A stretch of DNA of 28,629 bases, taken from assembly GCA_018894075.1 (NCBI GenBank), contig JAHIEB010000039.1:1-28629 (forward strand), in the 5' to 3' direction. The notes beneath the pieces are model-generated. The model searched no databases. It had not been told where the DNA came from and saw only the letters and a program-made list of their open reading frames with translations. Made by a program: the position numbers and the translations under genes. Source of the DNA: Patescibacteria group bacterium. Its GTDB lineage: Bacteria; Patescibacteriota; Minisyncoccia; Minisyncoccales; Staskawiczbacteraceae. This document shows positions 13,698 to 26,071 of the stretch, piece by piece (the stretch's first letter is position 1; each line of letters opens with the position of its first letter).

Positions 13698-14498
13698 ATG
13701 TTTTCTTTGGACCCTCGAGGGGGGCATAATCGATATAATTTTAAGATCGATTTCTTTGAAAAGTGGACGCCGGAGATGGCCTATGTTTTAGGCTTTTTAT
13801 ATGCAGATGGGTATATTGAAGATGCGGGAAAATCATCAAGGACTCAATATATATCTTTTGGCAGCAAAGACAAAGAGATTATCGAGTTAATAAGATCGGT
13901 ATTAGGATCTAAGCACATAATAAATTATAGAATTCCTAGCAAGGTTTTTTTCCCTGGCGGAAAAACGTATAAATGTGCCGAATTCTATAAATTAAGGATC
14001 GGCAGTAAGAAATGGTTCAGAGATCTTTTGCGGTTAGGGCTTGTCCCAAAAAAATCACTAATAATAAAATTCCCAAATAACATCCCCGATAAATATTTCG
14101 GACATTTCGTCCGAGGATACTTTGACGGAGATGGATGTGTCACTATTAAAAGAGGCAGGGGCGCAAGAGGGCAGACGATTCTAAAGGGAGTAGCCGTCAT
14201 TTTTACTAGCGGGAGCAGACTCTTTTTAGAGGGGTTAAGGAACCGGGCGCATCAAATTGTTGGTTTTAGGAAAAGGATTGTTTATTACGGTAGCCGTAGC
14301 AGGGCATGCTATTTGAAATATAATACGGCCGAAAGCGTGAGATGGTTCCAACTTTTTTATGGCGATTGCTTCAACCTATTTTTAAAAAGAAAATATAATG
14401 TCTTCCAAAAATACTTTCAATTGCGCCCAGTTAGGATTGACAAAGAGACAGCAAAGATATTGAATAAAGGATCATGGCCAGGTATCCAAGTAGTTTAA
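13698..14498 (+). CDS. Free-standing two-motif LAGLIDADG endonuclease-like protein; last 23 nt overlap tRNA-Cys
   Basis: AYVLGFLYADGYI and HFVRGYFDGDGCV motifs, LGLVPKKSL linker, FTSGS. Confidence 0.88.
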   Translation: MFSLDPRGGHNRYNFKIDFFEKWTPEMAYVLGFLYADGYIEDAGKSSRTQYISFGSKDKEIIELIRSVLGSKHIINYRIPSKVFFPGGKTYKCAEFYKLRIGSKKWFRDLLRLGLVPKKSLIIKFPNNIPDKYFGHFVRGYFDGDGCVTIKRGRGARGQTILKGVAVIFTSGSRLFLEGLRNRAHQIVGFRKRIVYYGSRSRACYLKYNTAESVRWFQLFYGDCFNLFLKRKYNVFQKYFQLRPVRIDKETAKILNKGSWPGIQVV

Positions 14499-22264: not shown

Positions 22265-22266
22265 TG

Positions 22267-22340
22267 TGGGCGTATCCCGACTCGAACGGGAGACCTCGTC
22301 GATGTCAACGACGCGCTCTAACCAACTGAGCTATACGCCC
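22267..22340 (-). tRNA. tRNA-Val(GAC)
   Basis: GGGCGTA/TACGCCC acceptor stem, CGTCG-TTGACAT-CGACG. Confidence 0.95.
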
Positions 22341-22343
22341 TTC

Positions 22344-22419
22344 TGGTGGGCCCGGATGGAGTCGAACCATCCACCTATTGTTTATAAGACAATTGTTCTA
22401 ACCGCTGAACTACGGGCCC
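22344..22419 (-). tRNA. tRNA-Ile(TAT)
   Basis: GGGCCCG/CGGGCCC acceptor stem, ATTGT-CTTATAA-ACAAT anticodon arm, GGTTCGACTCC, A73, encoded CCA. Confidence 0.9.
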
Positions 22420-23076
22420 ATATTTCTCCGAAATAGCTTTTATCGCCATTAGTATCTTCTCTGATAATCTAGCATTTCCTATGCCAAGCGTGCAAGTTCC
22501 ATGCCCAAAACGGCCCTTGTGGTTTATATTATACGAGAAAGTGTTTTTGATATATGGTTTGATAAATTGCGTGGTTGGCACTCCTATCACCTCTGACCAA
22601 AAAGAAATTTCTTTATTTATATCCATGTCGCTGTATAGATGGAGTTGAACATGAAATTTCTGTTTAGGAACTTTGAGAGATTTCATCAACCAAAGAGCAA
22701 AGAATTTAATTATCGAAGGATCTGTGTTTGATAGATAAAGCGACGAATTAGCAGTTTTAAGACCTTCACCCCAATAAAGAAAGACGCCCGCCATATAAAG
22801 CTCCTTATTAGTAAAAGGAAATAATTTTCTTTTCTCGTTATTTAAACAATAGTTCAGTCTGACTTCTTTCTTCTTCCGTTTTGTTTCTCTGCACCTTTCA
22901 ATTCTAATCTGGCTATTATCTCGGAGCTCCCTTATCCTCGCCTCAGGAAGGGGATAAGATTTTAGCCAGGAGCTAAGCGTGCTTTTACTGACATGAATGG
23001 CTTGTTTTATTTGGCTGTAGCTCATTCCTTGCTCGCGTAGATTTAGAGCTTTATTTTTTAGATCAAAATATGCCAT
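22375..23076 (-). CDS. HTH plus single-motif LAGLIDADG-like protein; last 45 nt overlap tRNA-Ile
   Basis: LNLREQGMSYSQIKQAIHVSKSTLSSWLK (HTH); AGVFLYWGEG motif followed by LYLSNTDPSII. Confidence 0.75.
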   Translation of the reverse strand: MAYFDLKNKALNLREQGMSYSQIKQAIHVSKSTLSSWLKSYPLPEARIRELRDNSQIRIERCRETKRKKKEVRLNYCLNNEKRKLFPFTNKELYMAGVFLYWGEGLKTANSSLYLSNTDPSIIKFFALWLMKSLKVPKQKFHVQLHLYSDMDINKEISFWSEVIGVPTTQFIKPYIKNTFSYNINHKGRFGHGTCTLGIGNARLSEKILMAIKAISEKYGPVVQRLEQLSYKQ

Positions 23077-23120
23077 ATTGAACGAATATCCTTATCGTGG
23101 TATTGAGGACTCCCAAGTTC

Positions 23121-23129
23121 AGTATAACA
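23121..23129 (-). promoter_or_regulatory. Extended -10 element upstream of the HTH-LAGLIDADG gene
   Basis: Minus strand TG-T-TATACT, 44 nt upstream of the ATG. Confidence 0.55.
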
Positions 23130-23149
23130 GGCAGTACACTAAAGAGCAA

Positions 23150-24976
23150 TTATCCCTTTTTTATAATTTTTTCAAACTCCTCTCTTTCAATCGTTTCTTT
23201 TTCCATTAAAGTTTTGGCCAGCTTGTCTAGGAGTTTTCTCTTTTTGGTTAAGATACTAGTCGCTTGTTTTTCAGCTGATCGGATGAATTTATCAACCTCA
23301 CCGTCAATTTCAGAGGCTACTTTTTCAGAATAGTTTCTCTGCTCTGAAATCTCTCTTCCCAAAAAGACCATATCGTCTTTCTCTCCGAATGAGACAGGCC
23401 CCAAGGCAGACATCCCGTATTCTTTAACCAACTTTCTGGCCAAGTCAGACGCCCTTATTAAGTCGTTTGAAGCTCCTGTCGTTATCTCCTTAAAAGCCAG
23501 CCTCTCTGCGCTGTACCCACCCAATAGCGTGGCCATTTCAGCCAAGAATTCTGTTTTTGACTTGATTCTCTTTTCTTCAGAGGGCATTTGCAGGGTGTAT
23601 CCTGCTGCCATTCCCCTGGCGATAATAGATATCTTTCTTATTGGTTCAGATCCGAAGAAGGAGGAGGAAACTAAGGCGTGGCCCGCTTCGTGGATAGCTG
23701 CAATACCCTTTTCTTTTTTAGACAAGATATGGCTTTTTCTCTCCGGCCCAAGCAGCACTTTTTCAATTGCTTCTAAAAACTCAGGCTGGTTTATCTGGGT
23801 TTTGTTTTTTCTGGCGGCCATTAAAGCGGCTTCATTGGCAATGTTGGCTAAATCAGCTCCTGAAAACCCGGGAGTCCTTTCTGCTATCTCTCTTAAATTA
23901 ACGTCAGAGCCCATGGGTTTTTGCTTTGAATGTATTTTCAATATATCTTCTCTGTCACGGACATCCGGAGGGTCTAAAACTATCTTTCGGTCAAACCTGC
24001 CGGGCCTCAATAAGGCAGGATCTAAAATATCTCCTCTGTTAGTCGCTGCCATAACAATGACATTGTTTTCTCTCTCAAACCCGTCCATTTCAACTAATAT
24101 CTGATTTAGGGTTTGTTCTCTTTCATCGTGTCCTCCTCCTATGCCTGCCCCTCTGTGCCTGCCGATAGCGTCCAGCTCATCAATAAAGATAATTGCCGGA
24201 GAATGTTTTTTAGCTGTTTGAAACAAGTCTCTTACCCTGGCAGATCCCACTCCCACGAACATCTCAACGAACTCTGACCCTGAAATAGAGAAGAAAGGGA
24301 CATTGGCTTCTCCTGCTACAGCCCTGGCCAGCAAGGTTTTCCCAATGCCGGCTGAGCCCAAAAGAAGAACTCCTCTTGGGATTTTAGCTCCCATAGCTAG
24401 ATATTTCTTTGGGGATTTTAAAAAGTCAACAATTTCTATCAGTTCTTCTTTGGCTTCCTTTAACCCGGCCACGTCTGTAAAAAAGATTTTGTCTTTTGAT
24501 TTTCCCTCTGTGCCGAATAAGCGCGCTCTTGATTTTGTGAAGTCAAAGGTCTGCATGGCTCCGCCTTTTGTCTGCTTAAATATCATCCAGAAAAAGATTC
24601 CAAAAACTAAGAGAGGGAGAATGCCGAAGATTAAAATAGGGGAAAGCCAGGACCAGACGCTTGGGCTGGGAGTTTTTACCTCTGCCTCAATCGAGCTAAG
24701 CTTTTCGGGATCTGCTCCAAGTTCAGTCAGATTCTGGACATAAGAGACGCCGGTTTCTTTTTCAGAAACAGACTTCTTGCTATCCTTGTAAACAATATCT
24801 AGAACATCGCCGCTTACTGTTATTTTTGAAACTTTATCCTGATTGATGTCTGATACAAGCTGGGTTATAGGTATGATGGGGACCTCCTCGGAAGGAAGAT
24901 AGCTTATACTGAATAGGCCACCCAGCACCAAAAAGATAACGATTATTATGACGAAATTCTTAAGGAATGGATTCAT
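23150..24976 (-). CDS. ftsH: ATP-dependent zinc metalloprotease FtsH
   Basis: Two TM helices, Walker A GSAGIGKT, Walker [24 protein letters not shown]; start MNPFLKN. Confidence 0.97.
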
Positions 24977-25029
24977 ATGTTTAATAACTAATAGAATAGC
25001 AGAAAAACAGGTCCTTTGCAACTTAGCTA

Positions 25030-25058
25030 TTGACAAAAGTTGAAACATTTGCTATTAT
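25030..25058 (+). promoter_or_regulatory. Sigma70-type promoter for the GC-rich hypothetical gene
   Basis: TTGACA, 17 nt, TATTAT with TGn. Confidence 0.75.
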
Positions 25059-25105
25059 ATTATCAGCACATAACACACACAGGTAAAACAGAAAGGAGGT
25101 GGCCC

Positions 25106-26071
25106 ATGACGGCCACCAAAAAGAAAGTGAAGCGCCCCGAAAATGGGGGCGGGCCTGAAGGCACTAGCCTTCATGTGCCAGAGGCTGTGGCGGCCAGAGT
25201 TCTGGAAGGGGTGGATCTAGATCATATTCTCCAGATTAAGCCTCCGGACCAGGAAGATATCCGGGCTGAGCGCGAGATGCTGGAGAATGTGGAGGAGTGG
25301 GTCTGCCAGACCCTGAGCCATTTGGCCAATTACAGGACCCGGCGTCTGACGCGAGCTGAGGAGGCCCATCAGTCGCAACTGGAGACAGGCATGGCGGCCG
25401 TGATCCAGAGGCCTGACACCAAGAGATCGGCGTATTTTGCCTACCTCTCCTGGCACATGATGAGTCTGAGTTTCAGCGACCACCATGAGGCAGCAGCCAT
25501 GTGGTGGAGGCTGGAAGACGAGAAACTCATTGAGGAGTGCTCGGCCAGCGACTCCCAGCTCCCAGGAGGCAGGAATGACAGAGGAGAGCCGGACTCCATA
25601 TACCACAGGTACTTTCGCCTGTGGGACTGCTTGGAGCCCTCTGATCTGCGGATCCTGCAGGAGCAGTACAAGGCTTACCGCATCCGTGTCCTAGATGCGG
25701 TGAAGCAGGACAGGCAGAGAAGGTGGGCTGAGCTTGGGGAGCAGGTCACGATCACGCTTCAGCAAGCCAAGGAGGGGCAAGACGGGCTGTTCGGCTTGGA
25801 CATCCCAGTCCGGACCATGGAAGGCAAGTCCCCGCTTCAGGGCGGACGGCTCCTGCTGCGCCGCGAGTCCGGCAGACTGACTGTGAAAGACGTGGTCAAT
25901 ATGGTCGGCCACGGCGGAATCGGATCCTTTGAGGATAGGGTCCGGGAGAAAATCATTGGCGAGCAGGTTTCTCTGCCTGCTGATGACACCATGCAGTTGA
26001 AGATCGCAAGGAACGGCCCGTCAGCCTGGCTGTTCTCCCAGATTGTAGTCTGGGGCCTGAATAACGTGTGA
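25106..26071 (+). CDS. Hypothetical protein (321 aa), strongly GC-rich
   Basis: AGGAGGT SD upstream of ATG 25106; own promoter and terminator; no recognised family. Confidence 0.8.
   Translation: MTATKKKVKRPENGGGPEGTSLHVPEAVAARVLEGVDLDHILQIKPPDQEDIRAEREMLENVEEWVCQTLSHLANYRTRRLTRAEEAHQSQLETGMAAVIQRPDTKRSAYFAYLSWHMMSLSFSDHHEAAAMWWRLEDEKLIEECSASDSQLPGGRNDRGEPDSIYHRYFRLWDCLEPSDLRILQEQYKAYRIRVLDAVKQDRQRRWAELGEQVTITLQQAKEGQDGLFGLDIPVRTMEGKSPLQGGRLLLRRESGRLTVKDVVNMVGHGGIGSFEDRVREKIIGEQVSLPADDTMQLKIARNGPSAWLFSQIVVWGLNNV

Follow-up and report, generated by a model that had tools for sequence, protein, structure and literature searches.

The window, i.e. the whole stretch of 28,629 nucleotides that we analysed (contig JAHIEB010000039.1 of a Patescibacteria group bacterium, assembly GCA_018894075.1), contains an open reading frame (ORF) that lies between ftsH and tRNA-Ile(UAU) and runs into the tRNA gene. 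The features of the locus are, in the direction of reading of the minus strand:

23150..25048, minus strand: ftsH, the conserved upstream flank, outside the element.
22420..23149, minus strand: optional insert of 730 bp, GC 37% as against 41% for the genome.
23121..23149, minus strand: putative promoter of the element, conserved as TTGtTC...TATAAT/TAAAAT in most of 81 loci.
23079..23121, strand-neutral: inverted repeat TGAAC...GTTCA, a putative operator identified through motif enrichment against shuffles.
22375..23076, minus strand: LAGLIDADG ORF of 233 aa (ORF listing, Pfam and models) with a helix-turn-helix (HTH, residues 1-42), a long arm helix (56-85), a LAGLIDADG domain (88-220) carrying E104, K107, N117 and a predicted specificity loop (180-193, with H186), and a tRNA-encoded tail (220-233).
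22344..22419, minus strand: tRNA-Ile(UAU), host gene and putative target (tRNA scan and Rfam, 72.3 bits), with the anticodon at 22386-22384, the T-loop GGTTCGA at 22368-22362 and the predicted dyad TTA/TAA between 22385 and 22384.
22266..22340, minus strand: tRNA-Val(GAC), the conserved downstream flank.
22264-21572, minus strand: RluA-type pseudouridine synthase, following tRNA-Val(GAC).

A 343-aa ORF with no Pfam match (25040-26071, plus strand) diverges from ftsH. In the same-genus genomes G201 and G202 the ftsH stop codon and the tRNA are 11-12 bp apart, as compared with 730 bp here. Both insert junctions are found in identical form in public contigs, probably from the source sample, which supports the assembly. 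A lake contig matches ftsH at 99% and departs from the window at the ftsH stop, leaving the insert uncovered and the joint out of sight. Since the tRNA is uninterrupted, ftsH is complete and the ORF has a putative promoter of its own, the ORF is neither intron- nor intein-borne; Rfam finds tRNAs alone in the window. Features of IS or integrative elements were not detected either: IS matches are limited to the HTH and fall far below the cut-off, and neither a tRNA 3' duplication nor a terminal repeat was seen at this site.

An earlier note on this DNA had reported that the ORF overlaps tRNA-Ile by 45 nt including the anticodon, and that its terminal 15 codons, stop included, are tRNA sequence. 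Both statements are correct: nucleotides 1-45 of tRNA-Ile(UAU), located at 22419-22344, are the last 45 nt of the ORF and encode 14 amino acids followed by TAG (tRNA nt 43-45). The further suggestion that translation and tRNA folding exclude each other, if read as a built-in switch, did not withstand comparison with relatives. Among 81 GTDB loci, this one included, the 45-nt overlap occurs at this locus alone, while 29 loci overlap by 10-11 nt and 43 not at all. The ORF of relatives usually ends either without overlap or at a TAG at tRNA nt 8-10 (a 10-nt overlap); because this TAG is out of frame here, the ORF reads on to tRNA nt 43-45. The 14-residue tRNA-encoded tail is unconserved and is modelled at a pLDDT of about 60, and in several 'empty' alleles, i.e. 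those that lack the insert, it is ftsH that extends into this tRNA. A conserved switch is thereby ruled out, and the 45-nt overlap is an accident of frame and incidental. A likelier effect of any overlap, by analogy with T4 segB (PMC2330249), would be an mRNA deprived of its stop codon by tRNA 5' processing; this genome contains both RNase P RNA and tmRNA.

The description of the protein in the earlier note, an HTH fused to a single LAGLIDADG-like motif, agrees with Pfam, structural alignment and the family profile: the basic linker corresponds to helix 56-85, and the motif AGVFLYWGEG lies at residues 96-105. The AlphaFold model (pLDDT 89) comprises the HTH (1-42), a helix of 30 residues and, at 88-220, an alpha/beta domain. 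Residues 5-42 match Pfam HTH_23 with E=8e-5, just under the cut-off. The second domain is more elusive: Pfam gave no LAGLIDADG match, Foldseek against the PDB returned nothing at E<=0.001, and single-sequence searches of PDB and Pfam detected the HTH alone. A family profile of 76 diverse members did match I-DmoI (E=3e-5), and structural alignment of residues 88-220 with VIA-align placed an intein HEN (Z 7.8), I-DmoI (Z 6.6), E-DreI (Z 6.5) and WhiA (Z 6.1) at the top. The best six rows are all of the LAGLIDADG fold, with modest Z-scores of 5.7-7.8 (below 8), rmsd of 2.8-3.6 Å and 81-89 aligned residues. Taken together, model, profile and structural alignment support the LAGLIDADG fold, albeit at modest Z.

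LAGLIDADG homing endonucleases make site-specific double-strand breaks with 4-nt 3' overhangs. In the profile alignment E104, K107 and N117 of the ORF product align with E117, K120 and N129 of I-DmoI; of 110 family members, 108 retain the E, 95 the K and 102 the N. In I-DmoI, E117 and K120 have been named as catalytic, and WhiA lacks these residues (PMC3384342). A two-copy model scored 0.83 as compared with 0.00 for the best control (pLDDT 85, interface on helix 94-104, at least 96% of contacts shared between runs). Among 30 solved homodimers, 20 reach the mark of 0.83, as does one among 23 monomers; the score may in part be due to resemblance to LAGLIDADG dimers of known structure. The fold and the acid followed by Lys and Asn/Gln are thus joined by a dimer on the motif helix that is seen in the model; an I-CreI-like homodimer is probable, and the expectation in the earlier note that a single-motif protein would dimerise holds at the level of modelling. 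Values of dN/dS among close pairs, mostly 0.05-0.2, indicate purifying selection on the ORF.

Purifying selection and the structural likeness to WhiA (Z 6.1), together with the operator-like repeat, would also be expected of a domesticated WhiA-like regulator that sits on its own promoter and on the tRNA gene, adjusting transcription of the tRNA but not cutting. Such a protein would fit its own tRNA and would have no need of immunity. We nevertheless regard this explanation as quite unlikely. The E/K/N residues are kept in about 90% of the family, and their loss is found mainly in a clade that also has no tRNA link; furthermore, the distribution described below lacks host-phylogeny signal, and scars are found at the site.

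We next turn to that distribution. Of 201 class genomes, 165 (82%) have the tRNA-Ile(UAU) pattern; TilS was found in 15, 14 of them without the pattern. It seems that members of this class as a rule decode AUA with a UAU tRNA. The literature searched, whose coverage leaves out many journals, contained no paper on UAU decoding in CPR. In the genome studied here tRNA-Ile(UAU) is the only AUA-reading tRNA gene and, since no TilS was found in this genome, it is probably essential. The Ile(UAU) clade of the ORF, in contrast, is found in 11 of the 201 genomes and in about 20 of 401 (about 5%) in a larger set, and the gene is absent from about 95% of genomes having the tRNA. This rules out that the protein is needed for modification or maturation of the UAU tRNA, and it sits poorly with a host regulator.

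The gene moves independently of the host genes that flank it. Its distance correlation with ftsH is 0.14-0.25, as compared with 0.85 between rluA and ftsH, and on the family tree the host family changes 79 times, as in shuffles (mean 78.9), whereas the tRNA label changes only 19 times (minimum 18; at least 63 in shuffles). A weak signal of co-travel with the gene is seen for the tRNA 5' half (partial rho 0.21, p=0.024; 3' half 0.09, p=0.16). What we find is an optional gene at a fixed site with empty cognate alleles in relatives, as in free-standing homing endonucleases, and we consider it likely that the gene is a mobile nuclease-like element. The suspicion in the earlier note of a new DNA-binding regulator or nuclease family acting at tRNA loci is therefore upheld as to the tRNA loci, while the WhiA-like regulator is disfavoured by the retention of E104/K107/N117 and by the patchy, lateral occurrence of the gene.

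The association with tRNA genes, which the earlier note proposed for homologues, extends across the family. tRNA-Ile(UAU) lies directly downstream on the same strand in 75 of 80 GTDB loci (of the other five, two show a tRNA truncated at a contig end or gap, one is convergent and two are uninformative) and is found in 74 of 80 loci of a metagenome set; the two sets overlap in part and together comprise about 150 Ile(UAU) loci. At L078 an Ile-clade gene is convergent with tRNA-Ile(UAU), the tRNA 3' end being 2 nt from the stop codon. Among 100 distant members, 81 immediately precede a tRNA gene, and these tRNAs are of 18 kinds other than Ile(UAU). Every clade is tied to one tRNA isoacceptor, and sister clades are often one anticodon base apart (Ile UAU/GAU, Arg UCU/UCG, Ala GGC/Val GAC). 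The loop 180-193, which precedes the last beta strand, is conserved inside clades and differs between them; the recognition helix of the HTH is near-invariant.

The family comprises 5,395 clusters at 50% identity and is present in 86 of the 201 class genomes, with up to nine members per genome. Annotated phage records gave no match; a single distant member was found in IMG/VR, where it precedes a short-arm tRNA-Leu(CAG). The family appears to be new, as the earlier note had supposed: it has no Pfam model, and no description of it was found in the literature searched, many journals lying outside the coverage.

Several relatives depart from the common arrangement. A small clade without a downstream tRNA has also lost catalytic residues: L186, L190, L193 and L201, nested among Gln(UUG) members, have lost K107/N117 or E104 and are a candidate domesticated or decaying branch. 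At L150 and L177 two family genes with overlapping stop and start codons stand in tandem before tRNA-Lys(CUU); the partners form their own sister clades, and a heterodimer is possible. The same genome carries a distant paralogue (L220; G000:C78:470-1111, minus strand) between tRNA-Tyr(GUA) and tRNA-Thr(GGU), with its stop 9 nt before the Thr tRNA and an N-terminal HTH of another type. Within the window, a two-motif LAGLIDADG_3 gene (13698-14498, plus strand; PF14528, 45.6 bits) ends 23 nt inside tRNA-Cys(GCA) and is unrelated to the family beyond the motif (hhalign probability 0.3%). In the ESM Atlas, structurally similar clusters of 280-310 aa (TM 0.65-0.74) are common in Actinomycetota.

The insert starts with a promoter-like site, the first base of which is the first base past the ftsH stop: TTGCTC (23149-23144), 17 bp and TATACT (23126-23121). 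A scanner for consensus promoters did not list it. The halves of the inverted repeat lie at 23121-23117, where the left one overlaps the -10 box, and at 23083-23079. Half-sites read (T/C)GAACC and GGTTC(A/G), which is the T-loop motif of tRNA, and are enriched five to eight times over shuffles in both sets examined (91 copies versus 10.8 in 81 Ile-clade loci; 88 versus 17.7 in 98 loci of other clades).

The spacing of the half-sites matches the geometry of the tRNA gene. The spacer from GAAC to GTTC is most often 34 bp in the Ile clade (33 bp here), and with 34 bp each half-site begins 17 bp from the dyad. As for the Ile tRNAs, 143 of 162 have the T-loop GTTC (starting at G53) 17 bp 3' of the 35/36 step. 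Given this match, an HTH bound to the T-loop would centre the nuclease on TTA/TAA, i.e. on the anticodon. In the Gln and Gly clades the tRNA distance is mostly 16, one base shorter, and the spacers are mostly 32-33 bp; the agreement between spacer and tRNA length is loose and rests on three to four clades, with 33 bp in this genome. For long-arm tRNAs (Tyr, Ser) the 17-bp rule cannot hold. The prediction that such tRNAs are never targeted seemed true of the first 91 labelled loci but failed once weaker matches were included (five Tyr members and one Ser member). In the Tyr and Thr clades the HTH is of another type and the GAACC operator is missing, which, post hoc, partly rescues these exceptions.

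Anticodon-centred cutting with anchoring on the T-loop, which we rate as somewhat better than an even bet, has to accommodate the state of the donor allele. The anticodon arm is identical between filled and empty alleles in three of seven close pairs (G000/G202, G007/G162 and G216/G211), a comparison of 89 filled with 73 empty loci yields no tRNA position that tells the two cleanly apart, and residue 186 fits the protein's own tRNA; no immunity is therefore visible. Anticodon-stem polymorphism was considered as a source of immunity and rejected, since no discriminating base survives taxonomic confounding. Ile anticodon stems are very variable (3.5 of 5 bases differ), yet those of other tRNAs are too (about 3), and covariation between beta-strand residues and stem bases is not above background.

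Identical tRNAs in filled and empty alleles would fit a homing site that spans the ftsH-tRNA junction and is destroyed by the insertion, which would confer immunity directly. The HTH would in that case rest on the D-arm (AGCTCA/AGTTCA), and the dyad would lie upstream of the tRNA by about 8 bp. The right operator half, often TAGTTCAAT, does resemble tRNA nt 8-16, and the evidence for mobility and catalysis serves this geometry equally. However, the 0-40 bp upstream of empty tRNAs are unconserved in both sequence and length and offer no basis for clade specificity, and the family-wide half-sites GAACC/GGTTC have the T-loop form. Covariation at base 38 rather than in the acceptor stem, and scars that end near the anticodon, likewise point away from the junction (see below), and we think a junction site unlikely.

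When all variable residues were compared with tRNA bases in 111 non-redundant loci, residue 186 and base 38 formed the sole outlier (z=19; next best 8). Histidine 186 is accompanied by C38 in none of 72 cases, and all 17 tRNAs with C38, scattered over about seven places of the tree, face a residue other than histidine. Held-out loci (less than 80% identical; a small set of 16) contain no exception (H with C38, 0/5; C38 with non-H, 5/5). An independent-pairs test was not significant, with low power, as it drew on two to four pairs on strongly supported branches. Base 38 is at position +3 from the predicted dyad and would lie among the bases just outside the central four, which we take to be those read by the I-CreI sub-domain made up of Q44, R68 and R70. 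These residues have been described as one binding sub-domain (PMC1702487).

Remnants of tRNA genes point to the same region. Orphan 5'-half tRNA scars end mostly at positions 31-39, four of them at 35. Five scars immediately precede a family gene, with ends at about 21, 31, 33, 35 and 36 and none beyond 36. Scars with ends at 33-36 might alternatively derive from group I intron alleles that have decayed. At L262 and L123, both empty alleles, intact tRNA-Ile/Val genes are preceded by short tRNA 5' fragments that end in the D-loop, each with a palindromic element after it. In other clades, about a dozen members lie next to tRNAs that contain group I introns after position 33, 35 or 36, a raw count with no background frequency (L154, L164, L187, L189, L215, L354, L360, L364, L373, L375, L378 and L381). 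The introns interrupt the anticodon loops of Asn, Phe, Thr and Tyr tRNA genes, several of whose anticodons ARAGORN mislabels. With an intron at 33/34 to 36/37 of the docked tRNA, the predicted site would be broken.

The same introns could be taken to favour action on RNA. Some LAGLIDADG proteins are maturases, and a factor that binds or cleaves the anticodon loop of mature or precursor tRNA, as an addiction or processing module, would equally account for isoacceptor-specific clades and for covariation in the anticodon loop. Against this, not one of about 150 Ile(UAU) neighbours contains an intron, and most genomes have a working tRNA in the absence of the gene. The left operator half overlaps the -10 box and would not be transcribed, so that the repeat is a DNA element, and the two-fold active site of the modelled dimer would suit duplex DNA. 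We consider action on RNA very improbable.

The reading we favour, with a degree of confidence that is fair rather than high, combines sequence comparison, models and analogy: a self-repressing, free-standing homing endonuclease predicted to cut the tRNA gene at the anticodon. The near-invariant HTH would read GGTTC, and at the promoter both HTHs of the dimer would bind the two inverted copies, resulting in autorepression. In the tRNA gene one HTH would anchor on the T-loop, 17 bp 3' of 35/36, and place the LAGLIDADG dyad on the anticodon, with loop 180-193 reading the anticodon loop (H186 with base 38) and conferring isoacceptor specificity. The break in an empty allele would be repaired from a filled allele through homology in ftsH and the tRNA 3' half; repair would copy the gene together with the donor tRNA 5' half, and imperfect events would leave 5'-half scars. 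Autorepression would limit toxicity to the element's own tRNA gene, and removal by RNase P of a stop codon located inside the tRNA would limit it further.

More tentatively, and at somewhat short of an even chance, the family as a whole could constitute a natural library of thousands of two-part nucleases, each with a constant HTH for the T-loop and a variable loop for the anticodon loop, and one isoacceptor per clade. Essential chromosomal tRNA genes would then be under attack across Patescibacteria by elements that spread without a sequence-immune donor allele, and this may explain both the anticodon-loop group I introns and the half-tRNA scars. It would also make testable how a selfish nuclease can persist beside a target that is essential and seems cleavable. 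Provided that the geometry is right, it yields an exact prediction, namely a cut centred on 35/36 with H186 paired with A38, and a readable code on bacterial chromosomes that leads from a protein loop to an anticodon loop, in a compact 220-aa scaffold with many natural specificities. New here are the T-loop-like inverted repeat at the promoter, with its spacing geometry, and the link between residue 186 and base 38.

The closest precedent in strategy is T4 SegB, which recognises GGTTCRANTCC and has cleavable sites in its own genome; cleavage there is restrained by low expression and by the removal of the stop codon in tRNA processing (PMC2330249). Like the present gene, segB is free-standing among tRNA genes, missing in close relatives and associated with the T-loop motif GGTTCRA. 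SegB, however, is a phage-borne GIY-YIG enzyme with relaxed specificity across many tRNAs that cuts near tRNA 3' ends, whereas the present family is mostly chromosomal, with one clade per isoacceptor, a modelled LAGLIDADG homodimer with an HTH, a dyad predicted on the anticodon and a putative operator derived from the same T-loop motif. With I-DmoI, I-CreI and I-MsoI it shares the LAGLIDADG helix with its acid, the subsequent Lys and Asn/Gln and, in the model, the dimer interface on the helix; it differs in its location outside introns and inteins, its short beta1-beta2 region, the insertion at 150-190, the N-terminal HTH on a 30-residue arm and the lack of a Pfam LAGLIDADG match. WhiA/DUF199 likewise joins a LAGLIDADG fold to an HTH and is autoregulated, as we propose here. 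It is a two-domain monomer with an N-terminal double LAGLIDADG and a C-terminal HTH, the order being opposite to that of the present single-motif protein, as the earlier note had recognised. In WhiA the catalytic acid and lysine have been lost, and the gene is universal among its hosts and vertically inherited (PMC3384342); the present family shows neither this catalytic loss nor the behaviour of a conserved single-copy gene. F-CphI and T4 SegF/G, known from collaborative or intronless homing (PMC3984707), are also free-standing enzymes beside a conserved target, but have different nuclease folds, and the Ile(UAU) clade has no intron partner. An intron-encoded enzyme with specificity towards the anticodon region in tRNA-fMet is mentioned in the same source (Bonocora and Shub 2001, as cited in PMC3984707). 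If the predicted geometry is right, the family would represent a second, independent solution to tRNA-gene targeting through the T-loop motif: by analogy, it would work like SegB in its free-standing strategy, while being built as a LAGLIDADG homodimer with an HTH.
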